From Kiritimatiellia bacterium (lineage in GTDB: Bacteria > Verrucomicrobiota > Kiritimatiellia > UBA8416): a stretch of DNA of 51,779 nucleotides. Made by a program: the position numbers and the translations under genes. The stretch lies in contig SKVN01000054.1 of the NCBI GenBank assembly GCA_007129405.1, positions 1 to 51,779 of the forward strand. The letters run 5' to 3'. Within the stretch, counting starts at the first letter, position 1, and each line of letters opens with the position of its first letter. Below, piece after piece: positions 37,000 to 51,779 of this stretch. The notes beneath the pieces were generated by a model. That model worked only from the letters and a program-made list of their open reading frames with translations. It was not told the origin of the DNA and made no database searches.

Positions 37000-38325
37000 T
37001 TATAGGTCCCGTACGTGCTCCCCTTCGTGCCAAACCCCACGAATACGCCTGCCTTCGATAATTCTTACACCTTCCCCGTGCATTAAACCATTTCGAAACT
37101 CGCCAATAAACTCGGATCCATCCGCAAACCGGTAATGACCACGCCCATGTCTGACGCCCTCCACAAAATTCCCTTCATAACGACTGCCATCCGCAAACAC
37201 ATAAAGACCGGATCCTGTTCGCAAATCTTGGCGAAACTCACCCTTGTACATGTCGCCATTTGCGAATCGGTGAATACCGTGACCATGGCGCTGCCCATTC
37301 ATGAAATCGCCAGCAAACTGCGAACCATCCGGATATAACATGATCCCCCGACCATTAATCATATCGTTCCCAAATTCCCCGACATAACGAGTGCCATCCG
37401 GTTTTGCCAGCCGTCCCAATCCCTGACGAATCCCACGCACAAAAACCCCCTCATAGCGAGTTCCATCTCGCATAATCAAGGTTCCATTTCCATGGTTTAG
37501 ATCATGGTAGAATTGTCCTTCATAACGCTCGCCATTACGGCGCGTATAAATACCCCACCCATGCATCAAACCGCTCTCAAATGTTCCTTCATAGCGATCA
37601 CCATTAGGAAACGTTACCACAGATATAGTACGCGAACTGGTGGTTTGGGCATATCCGGGATCAACATGTTCAGAAACCTCCTCAAAGATATCCGGAAGGG
37701 ATACGCCGTCAAACGAATCCAGTAGCGCGGCCCAGTCAGGCCGCTCATCTTCTCTTGATGGCTCGACCTGTGCGTACAAACGGTTCTCCATCTCGATGGG
37801 GGGGACCACCCCAACGGCAGGGTCATCTAACCGTGCCTGAAGTCGTGCAACTGCAACAGCAAGCTGATCCAATGCTTCACCACGCTGGTTCAATCTCTGA
37901 TCCAACCCTACACGTTCTATTTCAAGCTGTGTCTCGCGTGATGCTATCCAGCGCTGATGTCTTTCGGTCTCAATGCGCAACTGATCAACGGCCTGCTGTT
38001 GCGTGAGCTGTAAACTGTTGATCCGCGAAGACAGGTCTACTTGTGTTCGAGAAAGTTGGCTAACCCGGTTCGACAGACCACCTAACTGAATCGACGTACC
38101 CGCTATTTGGTCCTCCAACCATTCCAGATTCTCAACCACTACCGCAGTTTGTCGCAACATGGCAAGACCAGCCCCGAGAACAATCACCGCAGCAGCAAGA
38201 ACACAAAACAGCAAAAACGAAAAAAACCAAACAAACGCTTTTCGCATCCGAAATCGTTCAGCCACAAACTCATCTTTTAGCCGCAGCATAGCTTGATTGA
38301 TTTGCTGCCCATCCTCTGCCGTCAT
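37000..38325 (-). CDS. Membrane-anchored coiled-coil protein with eight tandem MORN repeats
   Basis: TM helix at about aa 31-56. Gln/Leu-rich coiled coil. Eight exact 23-aa-period units (RYEGxFxxGxxHGxGxxxxxDGx) from aa 244 to about 427, with a partial ninth. Confidence 0.8.
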   Translation of the reverse strand: MTAEDGQQINQAMLRLKDEFVAERFRMRKAFVWFFSFLLFCVLAAAVIVLGAGLAMLRQTAVVVENLEWLEDQIAGTSIQLGGLSNRVSQLSRTQVDLSSRINSLQLTQQQAVDQLRIETERHQRWIASRETQLEIERVGLDQRLNQRGEALDQLAVAVARLQARLDDPAVGVVPPIEMENRLYAQVEPSREDERPDWAALLDSFDGVSLPDIFEEVSEHVDPGYAQTTSSRTISVVTFPNGDRYEGTFESGLMHGWGIYTRRNGERYEGQFYHDLNHGNGTLIMRDGTRYEGVFVRGIRQGLGRLAKPDGTRYVGEFGNDMINGRGIMLYPDGSQFAGDFMNGQRHGHGIHRFANGDMYKGEFRQDLRTGSGLYVFADGSRYEGNFVEGVRHGRGHYRFADGSEFIGEFRNGLMHGEGVRIIEGRRIRGVWHEGEHVRDL

Positions 38326-38327
38326 GA

Positions 38328-38885
38328 CTAATCCCCCACGGGCAATTCACGCGTCATCACGCGTGTTACCGAAATCGTACCATCGACATCCAAACTTGCA
38401 GCCTGCGATGCGATTGTCAAAGTGCGAACCCGCATAAGACCGGGTGTCCTATGAATGGCATCTAAAAACTGCAACAGATTGGGGATTTCTGTTTCATAGT
38501 CCCCCACTTCAATCACGTAGGTTACCAAATAATCGGTTGTCTCTGGGGACAGATGCCGCATCGAACGAAGCTGAACCCCACTCGACAGAGCTAACTCATC
38601 CAACGCATCCTTGAAAGATTCAATGGTTTCTGATTGGGCCCCCGTCACACCTAGCACATCCTTTATATCCAGATACTGCTCTCGGACAGAATCCTCATAC
38701 TGCAAAACACCAAGGGATCGCCTTAGTTCCCCCTCTTCGGTCAGTATGGCAGCATCTAAAGCATCTAGCTGCCGGAACGCTGGTTTAAAAACAAAAGCAT
38801 CTGCAACCATGAGAACCATAAACCCTACCGCGAGCAGAAGACCGACTCGTTCCCGCAGCGGCAACTGGGCAAGCTTCATAATCAT
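38328..38885 (-). CDS. GspM/PilO-like assembly-platform protein
   Basis: Single N-terminal TM, short coiled coil and ferredoxin-like C-terminus. 4-nt overlap with the upstream GspL-like gene. Confidence 0.55.
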   Translation of the reverse strand: MIMKLAQLPLRERVGLLLAVGFMVLMVADAFVFKPAFRQLDALDAAILTEEGELRRSLGVLQYEDSVREQYLDIKDVLGVTGAQSETIESFKDALDELALSSGVQLRSMRHLSPETTDYLVTYVIEVGDYETEIPNLLQFLDAIHRTPGLMRVRTLTIASQAASLDVDGTISVTRVMTRELPVGD

Positions 38886-40360
38886 GATGAATGTCCCCCT
38901 GTAATCCGGCCATTGATTTGAAACCGAAACCTTTCTCTATTATCCATAGCTGTACCACCTGCTTCCTCCACCTGCTTAAAATAAGGTGTTTCCTCTAATA
39001 AGCGTATTAACTCTCGTATATCTCGGCGCTGCGGCGCTGAACCTTGAATGGATATACGTCCATTCTCGATCTGCAACGAAAGAGAATCGAGAAAAACCCC
39101 TTCAGGAACAGCCGCATGTATGACTGGCAGCAAGTGCTCTGGCATCACCTGTATTTCCTGACGACCACGAGTCGCCCGAAGAATTTCCACTCTCCGCTCT
39201 ACCTGCATCACCTGGGGAAGCAGCAATGCCGTTTCTGCCTTAAGCTCTTCCAAATACTGCACCCGATTCCATGCCCCTAAGGAAAAAAACAGTGATGCCG
39301 CCACCAGCAAAGCGGCCACCGCTGAAGTCAAACCCGCCCAGCCCTTGCCAAGCAACAGTAGACGCTGGCGCATCGCATATACATCTGGCACAAAGTGTAG
39401 AGCAAGTTTATCGGGAGCAAGAGCCATTCCAATAAGGCCCGTCAGCGATACAGAAGATCTCACTTCATTCGTCAAATGTTCTTCAGCCACAGGATTCACC
39501 TTCACATCCTGCAAAGGATCAACACTTTCACAGGAAACGTTCAAAGACGCTTGCAGGGCATTAACCATTTCCGGGGTGCGGGCAGATTCTGCCCCTGAAA
39601 GCAACAGAACATCAAAGCCTTTCCCTTGCAATACATCCTCGCAGGCACGTGCCGCTTCCTGTACGCGCTCGACAAATGCATCCACACCGGCATCCACTTG
39701 CTTAACGCCCCATAAAAGACTCTTTGTAAAAATCACTTGGCGATCTCGTATGACCAGCATGTGCGTAAAATACGAATCAACATCCAACGACAAAACAACT
39801 TTTTCCGCAGGCATGGATCGCGTGTGATACAACACCCATTGTAATACACCTTCAGATGAAACCCCCATACGATCCACAGCAAGCCCCGCATCCTCAATCG
39901 CGTAATAACGCTCGCGCACGATGCTCCGCTGCACAATGGCCAGCAACACACGCATGTAGGTTCCCCGCCGCGTCTGACCAACCATTTTGATTCCAGACAA
40001 AATCTCCTGAATCGAGTATGGGGTCTGGCGACTAACCTGCAATTCAACCATGTCCTTAATTTCAGTCGGGTCAATAGAAGGTAATTCCAGCAGTCGTACG
40101 TTAACTAACTGACGAGGAATACTGCAAAGAAGCGGAACATTTGCAAACTTCACCGCCTTGAAAGCTTTTTGCAAACTTTCCCCAACTATGGTTGAAGCAT
40201 CTACTCGCTCGAAATAAGCTTTACTAAGTGTTAAACCAGAGCGCTGACTTGTAAGTTCCAGCACCTTGATCCAATCGCTGCTTACCTCCAGAAACACTGC
40301 CGTGGGCCGCGGGCTCAAGCGTACCGCACTAGAATCCTCCGCTAACATCTTTTTTGCCAT
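38882..40360 (-). CDS. GspL-like protein (PilM-type actin-like cytoplasmic domain + TM + PilN-like periplasmic domain)
   Basis: 492 aa. One central TM (GLTSAVAALLVAASLFFSLGAW). Its position lies between GspK-like and GspM-like genes. Confidence 0.6.
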   Translation of the reverse strand: MAKKMLAEDSSAVRLSPRPTAVFLEVSSDWIKVLELTSQRSGLTLSKAYFERVDASTIVGESLQKAFKAVKFANVPLLCSIPRQLVNVRLLELPSIDPTEIKDMVELQVSRQTPYSIQEILSGIKMVGQTRRGTYMRVLLAIVQRSIVRERYYAIEDAGLAVDRMGVSSEGVLQWVLYHTRSMPAEKVVLSLDVDSYFTHMLVIRDRQVIFTKSLLWGVKQVDAGVDAFVERVQEAARACEDVLQGKGFDVLLLSGAESARTPEMVNALQASLNVSCESVDPLQDVKVNPVAEEHLTNEVRSSVSLTGLIGMALAPDKLALHFVPDVYAMRQRLLLLGKGWAGLTSAVAALLVAASLFFSLGAWNRVQYLEELKAETALLLPQVMQVERRVEILRATRGRQEIQVMPEHLLPVIHAAVPEGVFLDSLSLQIENGRISIQGSAPQRRDIRELIRLLEETPYFKQVEEAGGTAMDNRERFRFQINGRITGGHSS

Positions 40361-40385
40361 GATTTATTCCCCAAATATTGCAGCG

Positions 40386-41345
40386 CTATTTCTCACGCCA
40401 CAAAACGAATTGACCTGCTACTGTATCCCACACAAATTCAATTTCCATACCCGCACCCGGCAATTCCTCGCCACCTACCGCGACGCCCCGAAACGCAGTT
40501 GAAGCAACCCCCATCGGCCCCCGTGCCCAAGTCCCCCTTTTTATATCCGGCATACGTGTTTTGAAATCTGCCCGACTCAAAAACCCGCGTTCTTTTCTGG
40601 CCGTAATAATTTGATCAGCCAATTCTTCGGCATTGCGAACCATCTCTGTATCACCTGTGGACACAAAATACGCCACCAAAACGGCTCTTGTCGCACTATT
40701 CACATTGATTACATCAGCCCGACCATACACCGTCAAGTGAGGCGCGAGCCTTGCATATAAATCCGCATCAACGCCTTCAATCATTCGCAAATCTTCAACC
40801 GATCGAAACACGGGGCGATCATACGAATCATTCCCCCCGCTTGTCAATCCAGCACCGCCCCCCCCTGCTCCTTCAAAAAGATTTTGTGCAACCTGTCTCC
40901 CCGCTTCTCCGCCTACATATAAAAATAGCTGCTTTAGCAACTCCGGGTTATGAAGATTTAAATGTAGCCTCCCCGACTCCCCCACAATACCCGTGTAGTA
41001 TTCTTGCTCATCCGGCATGGTAAAATATACCGTTTGCTCGACCGGGCGAACGACCAGCCCTTCCCGTGGTAAATGAAACAACCGCGCATTTCGGTTCCAG
41101 GCATCTGCACAAACACCATCCCAGATATTCGTCGAATAATCCGGATGAATTTGTTCCTCAAGCACAGCCACGGCCCAAGCAGCCACACTCGCAGCCTCCA
41201 TCCTGGCCAATACGCGTGACTGCAACCGATCCGCTGCTTGCAAGACCGCCCACACATGCCCTGCCGCTGCTACCGTAAGAGCAGCCAGGAAAAATAGCAC
41301 CCAAAGAGCCAGAATCAGAATACTTGCTTGTTTTCTTTGCATCAT
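40386..41345 (-). CDS. gspK: GspK-like minor pseudopilin
   Basis: N-terminal hydrophobic helix QASILILALWVLFFLAAL without a Gly-Phe cleavage motif. Contains a VINVNSATRAVL (HhH-like) segment typical of GspK. Confidence 0.6.
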   Translation of the reverse strand: MMQRKQASILILALWVLFFLAALTVAAAGHVWAVLQAADRLQSRVLARMEAASVAAWAVAVLEEQIHPDYSTNIWDGVCADAWNRNARLFHLPREGLVVRPVEQTVYFTMPDEQEYYTGIVGESGRLHLNLHNPELLKQLFLYVGGEAGRQVAQNLFEGAGGGGAGLTSGGNDSYDRPVFRSVEDLRMIEGVDADLYARLAPHLTVYGRADVINVNSATRAVLVAYFVSTGDTEMVRNAEELADQIITARKERGFLSRADFKTRMPDIKRGTWARGPMGVASTAFRGVAVGGEELPGAGMEIEFVWDTVAGQFVLWREK

Positions 41346-41914
41346 TTTGGTTCATCCTCTTCGAGCGGGTTATGGGGTAGCACCATGGTTCTCTCCACAA
41401 TCAGCTCACCATCAGCAACCAGCCCATGAACAACCATCCGGATAGCTCTTGGCATATTTGTATTGGACTCCCACGCTGGCAACCAATCTTCACTGCCGTT
41501 TGGAGAAGCATACCAGAAAGTAACATCGAAATCATAGGGGACCAGTGAAATACCGGATTGTTCCATCGCAAGGGTACCACGCGCGCCAACCCGGTACAGC
41601 AAACCGCCCGATTCTGGCGCAAGCACTTGCACCTCTTGTTTGTCTCCTGCAACAAGAGGTCCCCGCACAAACCGTAATTCGCGAGAACCAAAATGGTAAT
41701 CGGCTGCCGGTATGACATACCCCAAATCCTGCTCTAGTGCCTCCCCCGCAAGATAGATCTCTGCTTCGCGATTGCCGAAGTCACGTATCCGCGCATACAC
41801 GCGAAATCCGCCTTCAAAACAGGCGAAGACAACCATCATTACGCCAGCGATAATAGACAGCGTAACCAGTAGCTCCAGCAACGTAAACCCGCTAGTAGAA
41901 AAAATGCGCTTCAC
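41342..41914 (-). CDS. Minor pseudopilin, GspJ-like
   Basis: Prepilin-type N-terminus SGFTLLELLVTLSI. Confidence 0.65.
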   Translation of the reverse strand: MKRIFSTSGFTLLELLVTLSIIAGVMMVVFACFEGGFRVYARIRDFGNREAEIYLAGEALEQDLGYVIPAADYHFGSRELRFVRGPLVAGDKQEVQVLAPESGGLLYRVGARGTLAMEQSGISLVPYDFDVTFWYASPNGSEDWLPAWESNTNMPRAIRMVVHGLVADGELIVERTMVLPHNPLEEDEPK

Positions 41915-42288
41915 GGCACATCCCCGCGATCTGGAGCAATATACACGAGCATTTCATAAGCACCACCGACAGCAACATTTTCATCTGCATCACGCCAGAG
42001 CACCCGATACAACCCCGCATGCCCGGCAAAATCCTCTTCAATCGTGATACCTCCCCCACTTTCGGGAGCCACACCCTGCAATGCCTCATACCGTATGCAG
42101 GCAAATTGCTCCTGTGCCGCCATGGTCGAACGTGTTCGGTGCACCCCCATGTTCCACACATGCAAAACACTGTGCAGCCCCTGCAATACGAGCACCAAAC
42201 CTGTTGAAAGAACAACAACCGTTATGAGTATCTCGAGAAGCGTAAACCCGCAGAGGTTTGTTTGTGACGATCGGCGCATCGCGACCAC
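41911..42288 (-). CDS. Minor pseudopilin, GspI/GspH-like
   Basis: Prepilin-type N-terminus CGFTLLEILITVVV. GTG 42288 or ATG 42279 start. Confidence 0.65.
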   Translation of the reverse strand: MVAMRRSSQTNLCGFTLLEILITVVVLSTGLVLVLQGLHSVLHVWNMGVHRTRSTMAAQEQFACIRYEALQGVAPESGGGITIEEDFAGHAGLYRVLWRDADENVAVGGAYEMLVYIAPDRGDVP

Positions 42289-42297
42289 GCCTTCGCG

Positions 42298-42711
42298 TTA
42301 AGAGTCAATATTACTGATTTTTGCACCTGGCCCCCCGCCTGGCGGACCATCAGACCATACCTCAAATCCTGCAGGTCCTGTATCGCGGCGATATTGATAA
42401 TGATTTCCCCATGGATCTTCTGGTTCTTTTTCCAGATAAGGCCCCTTCCATGTTCCCAGTCGCCGACCCGTCCCGCCTCCTGGATCTTGCATCAAAGCGT
42501 TTAAACCTTGATCATTCGTGGGATATTCTCCCATGTCCAACCGATAAAATCGCAAGGCTGATGTGATTGATGCGATTTCTGCCCTGGCAATATTAATGCG
42601 CGCATCATCAGCACGATCCATAATGCGAGGAAGCACCATCCCTGCCAACGATGCCAGAATAATCACGACAATCATCAATTCAATTAGCGTAAATCCTGAT
42701 TTTCCTTTCAA
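42298..42711 (-). CDS. gspG: Major pseudopilin GspG
   Basis: TTG start. KSGFTLIELMIVVIIL plus WKGPYLEKEPEDPWGNHYQY, the GspG signature. Confidence 0.9.
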   Translation of the reverse strand: MKGKSGFTLIELMIVVIILASLAGMVLPRIMDRADDARINIARAEIASITSALRFYRLDMGEYPTNDQGLNALMQDPGGGTGRRLGTWKGPYLEKEPEDPWGNHYQYRRDTGPAGFEVWSDGPPGGGPGAKISNIDS

Positions 42712-42806
42712 ACCGATTCTCCTTTACTCCGCATTTGCATTCTCACATATATCTGCAATCGGGGCATTCTATCTGAGTATTTGATGCCTGTAAATTGTAT
42801 TTCAAC

Positions 42807-44009
42807 TTAGCGCAATCGCCCGCCCAATTCAAAGATCGGCATCAACATCGCAAAAACAATAAAGCCGACCAACCCACCGACAAATAGCAAAAGCAGTGGT
42901 TCGATTAGTGCCGTTGCAATACGCCCTTGGCGATTCACAGATGCCTCATAGTATTTTGCTATATCTTCTAATGACTCCTCCAGCCGACCCGTCTCTTCTC
43001 CTACCGAAACCATATTTGCAAAAAAGGGCGGAAACCATACAGAACTGCGCAAACCGCTAGAGAGTCGGATGCCTTGCTGAACGGTACGGATTCTTACTGT
43101 ATCTACCTCGCCCTGCAAAACAGTATTGGACATCGTATTTGCACTTAATCGCAACACGCTTTCAATGGGAATACCCGAACGCACCAGCAAAGCAAAAGTA
43201 CGTGCAAAACGCCCCATTTCCACATCCCGCAAAAAACGTCCAAGCAAAGGGGTTCGCAAAAGCGCAGTATCCAACATGATACGCCCCGTCTGCATGAGGG
43301 CAATGCGACGAATAATTACGGCCACCAACACAATCGATATAACAACCCAATGACCCTGATTCGTTAAAAAACCACTCATAGAAAGCAAAATACGAGTTGC
43401 CGCGGGAAGATCAGCGGATTGATCGAACAATCGCATCACACGTGGCATAAAAAAAGTCAACAGAATCACCACGGTGATCATACCTACGATACCAACCAAG
43501 ACAGGATAGGCCATCGCAGCCTGCACCTGACGTCGACTTTCCTCTTCTTTTTCACGCGCGTCAGCCAATCTTTCCAGCATCGTGTCCAGCATACCGGATG
43601 CCTCACCTGCTTCCACCATGCTCACATATAAAGATGGGAACAACTTGGGATAAGCTTTTATCGCTTCAGAAAGCATGCAACCATCACGTATGGAACCAGC
43701 AACGTCTTCCAGTATGGGGCGCAAATTAGAAGATTCGGTCTGATCTTGTATATTATGCATAGCCTGCATAACCGGAATACCACCACGGATCATACTTGCG
43801 AGCTGACGTGTGAAAATCGTGATATCCCCAGCACGCACAGAACCAACACGATGCCGTTTCCCAACGGAACCATCAACCGGTTTTACCCATATGGGTGTTA
43901 ATCCCCGTGACTCGATATGCGCCAAGGCTGCGGCGCGCGATTCAGCAGCCAGCTCACGTTCAATCGTTTTGCCAGGACCTTGTTTGGCTTTATAACGATA
44001 CTGTGGCAT
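42807..44009 (-). CDS. gspF: Type II secretion platform protein GspF (PilC family)
   Basis: 400 aa. Two T2SSF repeats and three TM segments. Confidence 0.9.
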   Translation of the reverse strand: MPQYRYKAKQGPGKTIERELAAESRAAALAHIESRGLTPIWVKPVDGSVGKRHRVGSVRAGDITIFTRQLASMIRGGIPVMQAMHNIQDQTESSNLRPILEDVAGSIRDGCMLSEAIKAYPKLFPSLYVSMVEAGEASGMLDTMLERLADAREKEEESRRQVQAAMAYPVLVGIVGMITVVILLTFFMPRVMRLFDQSADLPAATRILLSMSGFLTNQGHWVVISIVLVAVIIRRIALMQTGRIMLDTALLRTPLLGRFLRDVEMGRFARTFALLVRSGIPIESVLRLSANTMSNTVLQGEVDTVRIRTVQQGIRLSSGLRSSVWFPPFFANMVSVGEETGRLEESLEDIAKYYEASVNRQGRIATALIEPLLLLFVGGLVGFIVFAMLMPIFELGGRLR

Positions 44010-44098: not shown

Positions 44099-45733
44099 CT
44101 AAGCAAGCGTAACACGCAAAAGTTCCTCTTCCGTTGTCAACCCACCACGCACTTTACGCAAACCATCCTCGCGCAGGGTATCAAAGCCAAGTTGATTCGC
44201 CTTCTCCCGAATCGCCTGGGCCGAGGAGCGAGCCAGAATCAAATTGCTTATCGTATCATCAAGGGGCAAGAATTCACAAATAGCGATACGACCACGATAC
44301 CCTGTTTGATTACAGGCATGACACCCCGCACCTTTGAATAACGTATGCCCATCTTGCTCGAACGATGTGCGACAGGATTCACAAATCGTACGCACCAGTC
44401 GTTGCGCCATAAATGATTGTACGGTTGACGTGATCAAATAGGGGTCAATGCCCATATCGATCAAGCGTGCAGCACCTCCCGCCGCATCATTCGTGTGTAA
44501 CGTGCTAAGCACCAGATGCCCTGTCATCGAAGTCTGGACAGCAATTTCTGCCGTTTCCTTGTCCCGGACCTCGCCAACCATCATCACATCGGGATCATGG
44601 CGCAACATACTCCGCAATGCCGTTGCAAATGTTAATCCAATGCGTGGATTCACTTGTGTTTGTGTGATCCCCGGCAGTTCGTATTCAACAGGATCCTCAA
44701 TCGTTATAATTTTGCGCTCGCGCTTATTCAGCCGACTCAAACATGCATACAACGTTGTGCTTTTCCCACTTCCGGTTGGTCCTGTTACAAACAAGATTCC
44801 GTACGGGGCACTGATATAAGACTGTAAACGAGCGACATGCTGTTGATCAAACCCTAGATCCTCCAAATGGTAAAGCATCCGCGAAGGCAATATACGAATC
44901 ACAACATCTTCACCATACATACTAGGAACAATGGAAATACGTAGATCATAGTTACGTTTTGCAATCGTAACGCGTGCACGTCCATCTTGTGGAAGTCGAC
45001 GCTCCACGATATTCAATCCTGCCATCAATTTAATGCGAGAAACAATGGAGGCATATAAACTATCCATCTTTTCCGATGTCGACGTGTCGTACAGCACACC
45101 GTCGATTCTCCGGCGCACGATGACGCCGCTACGATGCCGTTCCACATGCAAATCGGTAGCCCGATCCGAAATCGCATCTTTGAGCAACTGATTCACAAGA
45201 CGAACCACCGATGCATCAAGAGTTTGACTGTCCACATCCAACGCTTCGGTCTGCATGACAGGCGTTTCATCCACTACAACCCGGTTCGCCAGAATGCGTT
45301 CCACGGTATCTGCACCAACACCGTAGTACCGTTGTAAAGCCTCTTCAATATCAATTTGCGTGGCAAGGACACGCCGAACCTGAACGCCGAGAGCCGTTTC
45401 AATATCTTCGACACAGCGTAAATCAATGGGATCGGAAACCGCGATCGTAAGTCGACCGGATTCATCTCGAATCGGCATCACTTTGTAATGCGCAGCCAAT
45501 TTGGCACTAAGCTTGCGAACCGTAGCGACAGGAATATCAAGATCGCGGAGCCCCACAAACTCCATATGATGTGAAGCAGCATAAGCTTCCAGTATCCCCC
45601 TTGTATCTAGGCCATTTTGGCGTAACAATACCGTGATCAAAGGCGCAAATGTCACATCAGCTTCCTGCTGACACACCGCAAGCTGTTCCGGCGTCACCAA
45701 ACCGGCCTTCAGAATACGTTCCGTAAATTGCAT
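44099..45733 (-). CDS. gspE: Type II secretion ATPase GspE (PulE/PilB family)
   Basis: Walker A GPTGSGKST, Asp box, Walker B, His box and tetra-Cys motif (CESC ... CHAC). ATG 45733 is preferred over GTG 45739 on the basis of GGAGGAG spacing. Confidence 0.9.
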   Translation of the reverse strand: MQFTERILKAGLVTPEQLAVCQQEADVTFAPLITVLLRQNGLDTRGILEAYAASHHMEFVGLRDLDIPVATVRKLSAKLAAHYKVMPIRDESGRLTIAVSDPIDLRCVEDIETALGVQVRRVLATQIDIEEALQRYYGVGADTVERILANRVVVDETPVMQTEALDVDSQTLDASVVRLVNQLLKDAISDRATDLHVERHRSGVIVRRRIDGVLYDTSTSEKMDSLYASIVSRIKLMAGLNIVERRLPQDGRARVTIAKRNYDLRISIVPSMYGEDVVIRILPSRMLYHLEDLGFDQQHVARLQSYISAPYGILFVTGPTGSGKSTTLYACLSRLNKRERKIITIEDPVEYELPGITQTQVNPRIGLTFATALRSMLRHDPDVMMVGEVRDKETAEIAVQTSMTGHLVLSTLHTNDAAGGAARLIDMGIDPYLITSTVQSFMAQRLVRTICESCRTSFEQDGHTLFKGAGCHACNQTGYRGRIAICEFLPLDDTISNLILARSSAQAIREKANQLGFDTLREDGLRKVRGGLTTEEELLRVTLA

Positions 45734-45777
45734 CAGCACATGCTCCTCCGGGAACAGCCTACAAGCCCAATTCGCCC

Positions 45778-48145
<2,368 letters not shown>

Positions 48146-48187: not shown

Positions 48188-48937
48188 CTAATCATGGTGA
48201 ACCGCCTTCTTAACCTCAAGCACAGCTTCGCGGTAACGGTTCAACAAACTTCCGTCAATTTCCAAACTTCCCATCTTCAAAACCACGCCCGACAATAACG
48301 ATTCATCCACATTCTCCGTAAGCGTGGCGTCCTTGTGGAATTTTTCGCGCAATACGGATGTAAGCTCCTCACGCACCGTATCAGGTAAGCTATGACTGGT
48401 AGTAATCTGCGCATCAGATGTATCAACGGTCACGGCACCAGGCTCAACCTCGCCCAAAGCCGCAATCAGCTCTCCCGTAAACAAGGCGTTTAACTCGGCG
48501 GTCAATAGATCACTGAAAACCAAATGGAATATCTCACCGCCATAGTTTACGGCTTTCTCCTCCATTTCACGCAAAACTTGATCCCGTAATTTCTGCTCAC
48601 TTGCTTTTGCCTGGTCGATAATCTTCTGCGCATCCTGTTTGGCCTCATTCACGGAAAGTTCCTTCAGCCGGGCGGCCTCACGCTTCGCCTCATCCTGCAA
48701 ACCTTCGATTTGCCGTTCAAATTCCGCCTTCCTCTCCGCCAAATCCCGCTCGTGTTGGTCGACTTCCAAACGCATACTTTCTTCACGCTTACGAACTTCC
48801 TCCTCCACCTCACGCACGCGTGCCACCGCACGACTAGCTGAACCTTGCATGTAAAGCCGGACTAAAATGATAATGGCACCCAACACCACTACGTGCAGGC
48901 CTAAAATCGGAGCGGCTACCATCAAAACTTCCCTCAT
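48188..48937 (-). CDS. atpF: Fo subunit b with a delta(OSCP) C-terminal-domain-like tail
   Basis: N-terminal TM, then about 110 aa of charged coiled coil. The C-terminus DESLLSGVVLKMGSLEIDGSLLNRYREA parallels the delta pattern D.s..GGv.i..Gd.[10 protein letters not shown]. Confidence 0.6.
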   Translation of the reverse strand: MREVLMVAAPILGLHVVVLGAIIILVRLYMQGSASRAVARVREVEEEVRKREESMRLEVDQHERDLAERKAEFERQIEGLQDEAKREAARLKELSVNEAKQDAQKIIDQAKASEQKLRDQVLREMEEKAVNYGGEIFHLVFSDLLTAELNALFTGELIAALGEVEPGAVTVDTSDAQITTSHSLPDTVREELTSVLREKFHKDATLTENVDESLLSGVVLKMGSLEIDGSLLNRYREAVLEVKKAVHHD

Positions 48938-48995: not shown

Positions 48996-49211
48996 TTACC
49001 CTCGCCCAAAAATTTGAAATAATATCAATAACGCAATCACAGCAATTGCCTCTGAAAACACGAGCGAAATGATCATCGCTTGCAGAATTTTCGGCGCAGC
49101 CGAAGGGTTCCGACCTAACGCCCGTATGCTCGCATATCCGATCGATGCAATCACCGCCGAAGGCCCTATTATCGTAACAAACATTACCAGCACTATGATA
49201 AAATTATCCAT
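48996..49211 (-). CDS. atpE: Fo subunit c (single hairpin, 71 aa), atypical helix 1
   Basis: Polar loop LGRNPSA. Carboxylate in helix 2 (LVFSEAIAVIAL). No GxGxGxG motif in helix 1. Confidence 0.75.
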   Translation of the reverse strand: MDNFIIVLVMFVTIIGPSAVIASIGYASIRALGRNPSAAPKILQAMIISLVFSEAIAVIALLILFQIFGRG

Positions 49212-49222
49212 CGAGGTCTTAC

Positions 49223-49498
49223 CTATTTTTGCCCAACATCCTCATGCACCACAGATGCCATCTGTGCCGAGGCCTCCTCCACCAAAATCACACATTCATT
49301 CCCCGAAAATTTGACCATCCCTCGGTTAATAGGAATTTTGTGCTGCCCATCTACCACAACATTCCCAGGTCGCAACAAGCTGACGATAGGCGCATGGTAG
49401 TCCATTATCTCAAACTCTGCAAGATCGCCCGCAAGCTGTATAGCATGCGCGGTTCCTTCGTACACAACTCTCCGGGGACTTAAAACTTTCAATAGCAT
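49223..49498 (-). CDS. atpC: F1 epsilon subunit, beta-sandwich domain only (91 aa)
   Basis: LKVLSPRRVVYEG...GDLAEFEIMDYHAPIVSLLRPGNVVV matches the epsilon N-terminal domain. There is no room for the two C-terminal helices. Confidence 0.7.
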   Translation of the reverse strand: MLLKVLSPRRVVYEGTAHAIQLAGDLAEFEIMDYHAPIVSLLRPGNVVVDGQHKIPINRGMVKFSGNECVILVEEASAQMASVVHEDVGQK

Positions 49499-49501
49499 GC
49501 A

Positions 49502-50998
49502 TTACTCCTCGCTACGCACCGAAGCATCCATCTCTTGCGCATGCCAGTCTTTCAGAATTTGCTGAATCCCATCTTCGAGATCAGGCGTCAATTCCGTGGC
49601 ATCCTGCAGCCTACGCATAATCCCGTCGTGCAAATGCCTTGCAACCCCCCCGATTTGCGAGCAAAACGCACGCTGTGGCTCCCGCGAAACATGATCCAGG
49701 TGTCCTCCACGTAACGCATAGAGCAAAATCACGAGTTCGGCCTGCGAGCATAATACATGATGCCCTTGGCGAAAAACCTCACGAATAGCTTCACCACGTA
49801 AAATTACTTCTTTCGCTTCATCGGAAACCGAAGACAAGCGGCTTAATTGCAACATTTCGAGATAAGCAGCGTGGGCCGTCCGGATATCCGCGGTTAATGC
49901 TCGCAAAATGAGCGGCTGTGTACGCCCCCCGACAATTGACAGCGACATTTGCGGATCCACCGCAGGGCGAACACCCTCCGCAAAAATCGTATTACTCAAT
50001 ATCAATTGCCCATCACACATGGAAATAAGATTGGACGGGATATACCCAGTCAAGTCTCCCTGTTGCGTATCTGCTAACGAAAGAAAAGTCATCGAACCAG
50101 AGCCATGCCGCTCATTAAAACAACCAGCTTGTTCCATCAATTGCGTGTGCATATAGAAAATGTCACCAGGGTACGCCTCCCGACCCGGTGGGCGGTCCAA
50201 CAACAGCGAAAGTTGCCGATAAGCCCAAGCATGCTTTGTTAGATCATCCAGCACCACCAGGACATCTTTCCCCCGTTGCACAAACCAATCCCCTATTGCG
50301 GCGGCGGTAAATGGAGCAATATATTGCTCAGCTGCGGGTGCATTATCCGTTGCCCCCACGATGATGGTATAGGGTAACGCATGCCCTTCCACGAGGGTAG
50401 ACATCGCTTTTTCGAGCGCGGATACCGACTTGCCGACACAACAATAGATACAGACCACACCGCTGTCCTGTTGATTCAGAATGGCATCCAAGGCGATCGA
50501 ACTCTTGCCCGTCATTCGATCTCCAAGGATGAGTTGGCGTTGCCCCATACCAATGGGCGTTAAGGCGTCAACGATTTTCGTGCCCGTCAGAAGCATTCGG
50601 CGAATGGGCGCGCGATCCATCAGTGATGGTGCCTCACGAAATACCGGGATATTTTCCGTGTTCTTCAATTCACCATGCTCGTCAAAAGGCTGCCCCATGG
50701 CCGTCAGCATACGCCCTAGACAACCGTCCCCCGCAGGCACCGTAAAGGGTTCACTTTTTCCGCGCACTTCTTTGCCCATACGCAATTTGGACGTTGACCC
50801 AAGCGCAAGCGCACATACAGAATCCTGATCGAATTCCATCACCAACCCCAAGACATCATCACCCATGTCAACAATTTCGCCGGTCAAACAGCCCGGTAAA
50901 CCATCAATATGAACAACCGTGTCTTTAATGTCATGAATGGTACCCTTCTCTTCAAACTTTAGCTTGAAGAGCGGTATCTTTGAAGGTAACGAGCTCAT
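49502..50998 (-). CDS. atpA: F1 alpha-subunit paralogue 2 (divergent)
   Basis: GDRMTGKS Walker A, LVVLDDLTKHAWAYRQLSLLLDRPPGREAYPGDIFY, and PSNLISMCDGQL. The SVSRVGG segment reads SLSIVGG. Confidence 0.85.
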   Translation of the reverse strand: MSSLPSKIPLFKLKFEEKGTIHDIKDTVVHIDGLPGCLTGEIVDMGDDVLGLVMEFDQDSVCALALGSTSKLRMGKEVRGKSEPFTVPAGDGCLGRMLTAMGQPFDEHGELKNTENIPVFREAPSLMDRAPIRRMLLTGTKIVDALTPIGMGQRQLILGDRMTGKSSIALDAILNQQDSGVVCIYCCVGKSVSALEKAMSTLVEGHALPYTIIVGATDNAPAAEQYIAPFTAAAIGDWFVQRGKDVLVVLDDLTKHAWAYRQLSLLLDRPPGREAYPGDIFYMHTQLMEQAGCFNERHGSGSMTFLSLADTQQGDLTGYIPSNLISMCDGQLILSNTIFAEGVRPAVDPQMSLSIVGGRTQPLILRALTADIRTAHAAYLEMLQLSRLSSVSDEAKEVILRGEAIREVFRQGHHVLCSQAELVILLYALRGGHLDHVSREPQRAFCSQIGGVARHLHDGIMRRLQDATELTPDLEDGIQQILKDWHAQEMDASVRSEE

Positions 50999-51779
50999 TG
51001 AGAAACCCCTTTTGCATCTCGTCTGTCATACGTTTTTCTTCCACCAGCGAATTAACCAAGTCTGCCCGGCGTAGCCGTAAATGCTCCATGAAAAGCGCCA
51101 TAACAGGTCGCACCTGAGGTGGGGCAACATTTTCAAATAATCCATTCTGCAATGCGAACAAGAGCAACACCTGCTCCTCCATGGGGACAGGAGCATTCTC
51201 TTTCTGCTTTAACACTTCCTCCAGCACCTTACCTTTATTTAAGCGAGCTTCCAAGTCAGAAGAACCGCCCGCTTTAATGCGTGTCAACTTTTCTAGCTCA
51301 CGGTACCGCACATAATCAATCTTGAGCATGCTCGTGGGCTTTTTCATGGCTGGCCATTGTACCTTGCTACCAATACGTGATACGGATAGACCTAAATCGA
51401 CAGCAGGTTTGAAACCTTCGCCAAATAGCGTTGCGTTCAAAAAGATCTGCCCATCGGTCATCGAAATAATGTTGGAAGGGATATACCCTGCAAAATCACC
51501 TTGCTGCGTCTCCACAATCGGCAAATGCGTCATGGACCCCCCACCAAGTTCCGGCTTCATTTTCCCTGCACGCTCCACCAGCTGAGAGTGAATATAGAAA
51601 ATATCACCGGGATAGGCATCACGCCCGGGTGCGCGTTCCAACAACAATGAAATCTGGCGGTACGCCCAGGCATGCTTCGTGAAATCATCAAAAACAACGA
51701 GAACATTACGCCCCTCTTCATACATGAAATACTCGCCAATGCTTGCCGCCACGTATGGCACCAGGTATTGCTGCCCCAT
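50952..51779 (-). CDS. atpA: F1 alpha-subunit paralogue 1; the 5' end lies beyond the window edge
   Basis: LVVFDDFTKHAWAYRQISLLLERAPGRDAYPGDIFY, PSNIISMTDGQIFL and GLSVSRIG (Arg retained). The reading frame is open to base 51779. Confidence 0.85.
   Translation of the reverse strand: MGQQYLVPYVAASIGEYFMYEEGRNVLVVFDDFTKHAWAYRQISLLLERAPGRDAYPGDIFYIHSQLVERAGKMKPELGGGSMTHLPIVETQQGDFAGYIPSNIISMTDGQIFLNATLFGEGFKPAVDLGLSVSRIGSKVQWPAMKKPTSMLKIDYVRYRELEKLTRIKAGGSSDLEARLNKGKVLEEVLKQKENAPVPMEEQVLLLFALQNGLFENVAPPQVRPVMALFMEHLRLRRADLVNSLVEEKRMTDEMQKGFLNELVTFKDTALQAKV

Follow-up and report, generated by a model that had tools for sequence, protein, structure and literature searches.

A conserved second alpha subunit without the canonical arginine finger in an apparently non-respiratory, pilus-linked F-type ATPase locus of Kiritimatiellia and related bacteria

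The DNA analyzed here is a stretch of 51,779 nucleotides (nt) from a Kiritimatiellia bacterium (assembly GCA_007129405.1, contig SKVN01000054.1, positions 1-51779), below called the window, the right end of which carries an F-type ATPase operon headed by two tandem, overlapping alpha-subunit genes, alpha1 and alpha2. The two genes are paralogues, the pair is conserved in other genomes, alpha2 has lost the arginine (Arg) finger of canonical alpha subunits, and the operon adjoins genes of the type 4 pilus and type II secretion system (T2SS) class, with no gene for subunit a in the locus. On balance we lean toward the explanation that alpha1 and alpha2 are two distinct subunits of a single non-respiratory, pilus/T2SS-associated F-type ATPase, which would have an asymmetric head and a mechanical role.

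The loss of the finger was apparent from alignment of alpha2 to alpha subunits of known structure. In alpha1 the finger Arg (51375-51377) is part of the motif SVSRIG (51369-51386), and the same segment of alpha2 reads SLSIVGGR (49922-49945), with Ile355 at 49934-49936 and Arg359 at 49922-49924. The phmmer search against chains from the PDB showed that the alpha2 stretch "pavdpqmSLSIVGGRtq" pairs without gaps with "pAinvGlSvSRVGGaaQ", and Ile355 sits in the finger column, which corresponds to R365 of PS3, R376 of E. coli, and R373 of the bovine protein. The same was observed in a 91-sequence MAFFT alignment built from the alphas of the fetched loci, where the finger Arg is present in 62 of 62 canonical alphas, in all 15 related single alphas, and in each of the six full-length alpha1 sequences, and the column holds Ile in 7/7 alpha2 sequences. 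The agreement of the two alignments led us to reject a misaligned finger column. Among 29 alpha2 homologues, 54-87% identical to the window protein, all have Ile at the finger position, Gly357 and Gly358 do not vary, and Arg359 reaches at least 90% conservation; a divergent alpha2 representative (P0244) has Thr at the finger position. Hence, the replacement of Arg by Ile, which an earlier note on this DNA had read from its letters, concerns the true finger column and is constant across the alpha2 family. Six further positions, otherwise conserved, are changed in alpha2 only (Y240F, E247D, S295T, T338C, V363L, and K421Q in PS3 numbering). Two of them are near the finger, T338C in the SITDGQ loop and V363L in the SVSR strand, both of which we take to be placed at the catalytic interface of F1. 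The fact that the Ile is invariant rather than variable argues for a selected role of the finger position of alpha2 rather than for its decay.

It had also been considered in the earlier note that the Arg of the downstream GGRTQ sequence might itself occupy the finger position. This residue, Arg359, is four residues past Ile355, it pairs with Ala of the PDB alphas, and it aligns outside the finger column. All alphas of the pilus-linked clade have Lys or Arg at the Arg359 position, among them alpha1 and all 15 single alphas, which keep the finger, and so do some canonical alphas with the finger. As this basic residue is ancestral and found together with the finger, it does not point to a compensatory relocation, and selection on the finger elsewhere is not relaxed. 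In the AlphaFold2 (AF2) model of alpha2 residues 355-360 are helical, and residues 355 and 359 are one turn apart on the same face. The role of Arg359 as a compensatory, relocated finger is thus weakened by the ancestral Lys/Arg alongside the finger, yet from the shared helical face Arg359 may still substitute for it in part.

To describe the pair of genes, the window sequence was compared with related loci. Alpha1 is represented in the window by its C-terminal 275 amino acids (aa), encoded at 50952-51779 on the minus strand, with matches to PF00006 and PF00306 and the N-terminus beyond the window end. Alpha2 is encoded at 49502-50998, also on the minus strand, and is a three-domain alpha of 498 aa (PF02874, PF00006, and PF00306). 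All coordinates given before for both alphas were correct, and all motifs quoted for them were found in the sequence. The two proteins are 40% identical over 273 aa (E=1e-70), and the overlapping pair recurs in nine independent assemblies, which rules out a misassembly or a recent duplication and agrees with the earlier view of alpha1 and alpha2 as true, old paralogues. The overlap is 47 nt long (50952-50998), from the ATG of alpha2 (50996-50998) to the TGA of alpha1 (50952-50954), and it is read in different frames, with a Shine-Dalgarno-like AAGGGG located 7 nt upstream of the alpha2 ATG. The N-terminus of alpha2 bears its own invariant motif IPLFKxK, and residues P9, L10, and K12 are invariant in the 29 homologues. 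This invariance rules out a start further downstream, so that the ATG at 50998 stands as the only plausible start, as had been proposed. The overlap is 35-59 nt in every two-alpha locus compared (six besides the window), which together with the Shine-Dalgarno-like site makes the suggested translational coupling plausible, and the translation of alpha1 and alpha2 is probably coupled.

Because alpha1 is partial in the window, its N-terminal features were taken from orthologues. The full-length alpha1 orthologues are 485-487 aa long with an intact P-loop GDRMTGKT, and the window fragment is 88.8% identical to the alpha1 of one of them (L002). The P-loop of alpha2, GDRMTGKS (50501-50524), is an intact Walker A motif. 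It had been pointed out that this sequence departs from GDRQTGKT; the sequence is indeed present, but since the alpha1 orthologues also have GDRMTGKT, the Met is a trait of the family and not a defect of alpha2. The Walker A motif, the Walker B motif (DD), and the RPA motif are invariant across the 29 alpha2 homologues, which suggests that alpha2 should still bind nucleotide. The AF2 model of alpha2 (predicted local distance difference test score, pLDDT, 84.8; predicted template modeling score 0.86) superposed along its entire length on F1 alpha chains, with template modeling scores of about 0.9 and a root-mean-square deviation of 2.1-2.5 Å. Both alphas matched alpha-type Pfam and NCBIfam models. 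Alpha2 scored under the curated equivalog cut-offs (497 versus 554 for NF009884, and 460.9 versus 484.45 for TIGR00962), and the model score of alpha1, present in the window as a fragment only, is not comparable. Alpha2 is a complete three-domain alpha subunit without the canonical finger.

The occurrence of the pair in related genomes, which the earlier note had proposed as a check, was then used to describe the family. Exact and near homologues of alpha2 were found on many contigs, and the same gene order, which is X (a protein described below), alpha1, alpha2, epsilon, c, b/delta, gamma, beta, GspE, GspF, and pseudopilins, was present in nine independent assemblies. The two-alpha loci come from two Kiritimatiellia metagenome-assembled genomes (MAGs), Lentisphaerae MAGs, one Victivallales MAG, one "Verrucomicrobia" MAG, marine metagenome contigs, and one unclassified bacterial MAG. 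The genome scan yielded 18 relevant loci out of 80, as the pattern REAYPGDI is general and drew in canonical alphas. Mean orthologue identities in six loci were 69.7% for alpha1, 61.5% for alpha2, 80.9% for beta, 63.2% for gamma, and 83.5% for c. By these values alpha2 evolves faster than alpha1, although purifying selection clearly acts on it. Clustering at 50% identity reduces the alpha2 family to about three representatives (P0241, P0243, and P0244), and judging from these sequences it is compact and lineage-restricted. Most of the other top matches examined in the representative library were canonical alphas, several of them fused to delta or b-delta. Many of these canonical alphas (P0245-P0256 and P0258) are 560-750 aa long with a putative in-frame N-terminal delta or b-delta fusion, and they are unrelated to the pilus-linked clade.

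Relatives with a single alpha are found in Omnitrophota, Planctomycetota, and other MAGs, where the genes run X, epsilon, c, b/delta, alpha, gamma, beta, and GspE. In a neighbor-joining tree the single alphas group with alpha1 and alpha2, separately from the canonical alphas, in 100 of 100 bootstraps, and alpha1 nests among the single alphas, beside a Lentisphaerae single alpha in 60% of the replicates. The latter gene (L019 8001-9722) belongs to a Lentisphaerae MAG with the single-alpha order, in which b/delta is followed by alpha, and its contig stops just past the gene. In this phylogeny alpha1 corresponds to the single alpha of the Omnitrophota, Planctomycetota, and some Lentisphaerae clusters, and alpha2 is seen as an old or fast-evolving paralogue of the same family rather than a recent tandem copy.

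To define the kind of ATPase encoded here, subunit a was sought with a profile built from canonical loci. This profile had 54 matches in the canonical loci and none at E≤10 in the 51.8-kb window or in the pilus-linked loci, of which about 25 were screened (L002-L025, L088, and L089). Consistently, PF00119 was absent from the precomputed annotations within ±10 kb of the related loci. In some Omnitrophota-type clusters there are gaps between epsilon, c, and b/delta that hold small unrelated open reading frames (ORFs), such as L011 1304-1738, L013 6774-7151, and L015 3281-3544, and break up an otherwise compact operon; a subunit a hidden in the epsilon-c gaps was rejected, because these ORFs are unrelated and the subunit a profile was empty there. 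In 4 of 12 single-alpha relatives (L016 6892-7104, L018 385-600, L021 6826-7161, and L022 919-1140) Gln, Ile, or Gly stands in place of the carboxylate in the second transmembrane helix of c, with the GRNPSAAPK loop still conserved. This substitution suggests that in the single-alpha lineages without the carboxylate the c-ring is no ion carrier.

The operon at the right end of the window is tight, lies on the minus strand, and encodes alpha1, alpha2, epsilon, c, b/delta, gamma, and beta, with every subunit assignment backed by Pfam and NCBIfam models. As had been noted, two alphas are accompanied by only one beta and one gamma, and there is likewise one epsilon, one c, and one b/delta. The short epsilon (91 aa, 49223-49498) matches PF02823 on residues 3-76 and consists of the N-terminal beta-sandwich domain only, without the C-terminal helical domain; its score of 45.7 versus 67.25 bits is under all NCBIfam cut-offs. 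It is followed by the c subunit (71 aa, 48996-49211) with the conserved GRNPSAAPK loop and Glu54 of the second transmembrane helix at 49050-49052. The b/delta fusion (249 aa, 48188-48937) has an N-terminal transmembrane helix, a coiled coil, and a C-terminal OSCP-like domain, so that delta is present only as a C-terminal domain fused to b; it matches PF00213 on residues 172-234, has a weak PF00430 match, and reaches 1.5e-10 with TIGR03321, which is under the cut-off. Gamma (315 aa, 47198-48145; PF00231, 3.5e-22) is divergent, with 56.6 bits for TIGR01146 versus a cut-off of 194 and a strongly basic C-terminal tail [25 protein letters not shown]. Such a weak gamma score may explain why KEGG Orthology surveys found "alpha and beta but no gamma" in related phyla. 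While gamma, epsilon, c, and b are all far under the equivalog cut-offs, beta (470 aa, 45778-47190) passes the AtpD equivalog cut-off (TIGR01039, 551 bits versus 462.85), and its catalytic motifs are intact ([22 protein letters not shown] and YVPADD).

The ATPase genes are directly continued by genes of the pilus and secretion class, all on the minus strand. A GspE/MshE-type ATPase with MshEN and T2SSE domains (44099-45739) begins 38 nt downstream of beta, and the adjacency of beta and GspE is common to all related loci. The remaining T2SS/type 4 pilus-class cluster (38882-44009) includes GspF (42807-44009), GspG (42298-42711), a GspK-like protein (40386-41345), minor pseudopilins, and a PilM-PilN fusion (38882-40360). 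Of the cluster genes checked in the window, none was recognized as coding for a secretin. Along the whole window the G+C content stays near 0.49, and so gives no hint of a foreign island. The earlier note had handled the locus as an ordinary F1Fo operon, which does not agree with the linkage to pilus/T2SS genes and with a locus devoid of a subunit a gene; judged from its gene content, the ATPase is apparently a non-respiratory, pilus/T2SS-linked F-type enzyme.

A further constant element is protein X, a conserved protein of 400-445 aa encoded in the related loci immediately upstream of alpha1 (for example, L002 899-2104, P0121). The AF2 model (pLDDT 90) showed a unit of a beta-sandwich and a three-helix bundle that occurs twice, and one C-terminal transmembrane helix. 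Protein X has essentially no Pfam annotation, and a fold search against the PDB gave no match (best E=7e-3). As a substitute for subunit a it was rejected, given that it has a single C-terminal transmembrane helix and that its conserved Arg (FFLRW) is not shared by the single-alpha relatives. In Omnitrophota the module makes up the C-terminus of very large ORFs that extend past the edge of the locus, with 1,657-2,180 aa of them visible (L013 1-5343, L016 3-6545, and L024 1-4974). Two other observations concern the surroundings of the pilus genes. The pilus/T2SS run of the window ends with a 185-aa protein without a Pfam match (38328-38885) and a 441-aa MORN-repeat protein (37000-38325), both encoded on the minus strand. 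A Peptidase_MA_2-like protein with an HExxH motif recurs at varying positions in the ATPase/pilus clusters (L004 18435-19247, L089 10479-11327, L012 6887-7762, L013 5306-6202, and L024 5152-5937), and is absent at the corresponding place in the window and in L002.

The explanation that we favor is built on these features. The overlap of the two genes, their probable coupling, and the presence of one beta and one gamma lead us to infer that both alphas are built together with beta into one head around gamma, in which case the alpha positions would not be equivalent. The beta sites flanked by alpha2 would be deprived of the canonical finger, giving a built-in slow or silent site and with it an intrinsically asymmetric motor. 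The locus encodes a c-ring and a b/delta stalk and is devoid of a subunit a gene, so that the complex is likelier to work as a mechanical device powered by ATP, for the adjacent pilus/secretion system and for surface proteins encoded nearby in related loci, than as an ATP synthase, and its output would probably be mechanical, tied to the pilus/secretion system and protein X. The head could be an alpha3beta3 ring with a 2:1 or 1:2 mix of the alphas or, more radically, an (alpha1-alpha2-beta)2 ring that would keep the finger face of alpha2 away from every catalytic site. We regard as tentative, and rather less probable than not, the full version of this explanation, in which alpha1 and alpha2 take fixed, non-equivalent positions in one head with fewer than three fully competent sites, and drive a c-ring without subunit a, the torque being spent mechanically on the adjacent pilus/secretion system and on membrane-anchored surface proteins instead of on ion transport.

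Several points weigh against this explanation. The sharing of one ring by alpha1 and alpha2 and the catalytic defect of alpha2 are both steps that we infer, and three alpha positions are not equally divisible between two paralogues. The c-ring Glu is kept in every two-alpha locus, which, should a subunit a be encoded elsewhere in the genome, is compatible with an ion-coupled function of this subgroup. The conserved Arg359, which in the model shares the helical face of Ile355, could take over the role of the finger in part. The placement of alpha2 in the neighbor-joining tree is a further point, since alpha1 and the single alphas group without alpha2 in 38% of the replicates, and alpha1 is sister to alpha2 in 0%.

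Among other explanations, it is conceivable, yet in our judgment unlikely, that alpha2 is catalytically competent, with Arg359 reaching the beta site as a finger, and that the two alphas differ structurally, for example in the binding of the b/delta stalk or of protein X. The at least 90% conservation of Arg359, its position on the modeled helix, and the separate invariant motif at the alpha2 N-terminus would fit this explanation. However, a Lys or Arg that is ancestral in the pilus-linked clade and stands beside an intact finger in alpha1, the 15 single alphas, and some canonical alphas makes Arg359 no product of compensation, and the Thr of the divergent P0244 at the finger position also speaks against it. 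Still less probable is the formation of two alternative homotypic heads, (alpha1)3beta3 and (alpha2)3beta3, one active, the other slow or locked, that would serve under different conditions. A threefold ring is made most simply from one alpha type, and both alphas keep all three domains, but the genes overlap in one operon with no promoter space between them, which makes separate regulation unlikely, and none of the loci examined has alpha2 without alpha1.

A similarly low probability is given to an ordinary ion-coupled F1Fo ATP synthase with subunit a encoded elsewhere, in which the alpha duplication would be a neutral subfunctionalization. This would be consistent with the beta score above the AtpD cut-off and with the c subunit Glu54 kept in all two-alpha loci. 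Against it speak the lack of a subunit a gene in the window and within ±10 kb of any related locus, the low scores of gamma, epsilon, c, and b, the strictly conserved GspE adjacency, and the loss of the c-ring carboxylate in relatives; neutral decay, moreover, would not predict an invariant Ile. The class is also held to be non-respiratory in Omnitrophota, which mostly have V/A-type ATPases in addition (PMC10066038; 10.64898/2026.06.07.730766). The loss of a key catalytic-interface residue could alternatively mean that alpha2 works outside the ring in an accessory or regulatory capacity, perhaps alongside GspE or the pilus platform, or that the pair is a misassembly or a pseudogene. We hold this to be highly improbable, because the crown, nucleotide-binding, and C-terminal domains of alpha2 are conserved and match F1 alpha structures over the full length, an intact, conserved copy of the gene is found in nine assemblies that stem from different projects, and the 40% identity of alpha1 and alpha2 excludes a collapsed or duplicated assembly.

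The asymmetric, pilus-linked ATPase that we favor would be of interest for several reasons. To our knowledge, all F1, V1, and A1 heads studied to date have one type of non-catalytic subunit in three equivalent positions, and we know of no study in which the role of the alpha Arg finger was probed other than by engineered mutants and hybrid enzymes. Here an alpha without the finger is kept by selection beside an alpha with the finger across a whole bacterial lineage, and if the two co-assemble the complex may be a naturally asymmetric rotary motor. The pair offers a ready-made system for asking how asymmetry of rotary motors originates, how many competent sites rotation needs, and what role an F-type rotor has without the proton-channel subunit. 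These data also extend the pilus-linked, non-respiratory F-type ATPases from Omnitrophota to free-living bacteria of the PVC (Planctomycetota, Verrucomicrobiota, Chlamydiota) group, namely Kiritimatiellia and Lentisphaerae. In genome annotations the genes are called ordinary ATP synthase subunits, by which metabolic reconstructions can be misled.

The closest known relatives are the "symbiotic" non-respiratory F-type ATPases, whose genes adjoin type 4a pilus clusters in every class of Omnitrophota, with both gene sets located within 10 kb on 57 of 66 contigs (Seymour et al. 2023, Nat Microbiol, PMC10066038). These enzymes were likened to the type 2/3 F1-like ATPases of Mycoplasma (PMC10066038). 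A 2026 preprint reported that most Omnitrophota have alpha and beta matches with gamma undetected, and that 70-99% of Gorgyraeia, the dominant class, carry V/A-type ATPase subunits (10.64898/2026.06.07.730766). The loci analyzed here belong to the same alpha clade and share with the Omnitrophota loci the F-type genes beside a GspE/PilB-type ATPase, platform, and pilin genes, the divergent gamma, and giant surface proteins encoded nearby. The co-location within 10 kb is also seen in the window, where GspE begins 38 nt after beta and is followed by GspF, GspG, the GspK-like protein, and PilMN. On the other hand, the Omnitrophota and Planctomycetota loci have one alpha between b/delta and gamma, while in the window two overlapping alphas, one of them without the finger, head the operon, and the hosts are Kiritimatiellia and Lentisphaerae, unlike the Omnitrophota of the published study. 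Neither of the two papers mentions Kiritimatiellia, Lentisphaerae, two alphas, finger loss, or an absent subunit a (PMC10066038; 10.64898/2026.06.07.730766), and the loss of the c-ring Glu is not discussed in the former. A literature search on two-alpha F-ATPases, F1-like ATPases in PVC bacteria, and Kiritimatiella ATPases also returned nothing relevant, in agreement with the earlier remark that such a two-alpha F1 head was not known to its author as a described arrangement.

The Mycoplasma type 2 enzyme (the G1-ATPase of M. mobile, MMOB1660/1670) and the type 3 enzyme are similarly F1-derived alpha/beta/gamma motors uncoupled from ion translocation and tied to surface machinery and very large surface proteins, with a stalk protein that possibly came from a b-delta fusion (Toyonaga et al. 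2025, PMC11864180). The F1-like motor and giant surface "legs" of M. mobile (PMC11864180) recall the arrangement of the X module, which is an analogy and not evidence. The Mycoplasma systems differ in having one alpha, no c subunit, and no membrane-anchored b. Alpha2 scored 365.2 versus a cut-off of 600 with NF045863 (MMOB1660) and 264.6 versus 520 with NF045936 (MSC_0619), which is lower than its score with canonical AtpA (497). The N-ATPase (TIGR03324/TIGR03321) is likewise a second, divergent F-type operon with a delta-like C-terminal part of b, but it encodes a, AtpQ, and AtpR, has one alpha, and follows the order beta, epsilon, Q, R, a, c, b, alpha, and gamma; the TIGR03324 score obtained here, 462.6 versus 750.5, is far under its cut-off. 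Since the AtpA scores exceed the Mycoplasma scores and every curated alpha cut-off is missed, the locus is filed with the Omnitrophota-type class, and neither with the Mycoplasma systems nor with the N-ATPase.

The effect of mixing alphas has a counterpart in the laboratory. In 2012 Komoriya and colleagues reportedly described, in the Journal of Biological Chemistry, hybrid F1 of Bacillus PS3 with alpha Arg-finger mutants, in which the hydrolysis step at a beta site deprived of the finger is said to be slower by orders of magnitude and rotation to be asymmetric. That enzyme was a construct, while the alpha without the finger described here is natural, conserved, and placed beside a finger-bearing alpha. 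The co-assembly of duplicated ring subunits, one copy of which is without the functional residue, is known from the c1/c2/c3 ring of Acetobacterium woodii and from c/c'/c'' of the V-ATPase, where the mixing concerns the membrane rotor ring, whereas the paralogues of the window belong to the catalytic head. Hence, the two-alpha arrangement with one alpha lacking the finger appears to be an undescribed variant of the recently recognized class of pilus-linked, non-respiratory F-type ATPases.

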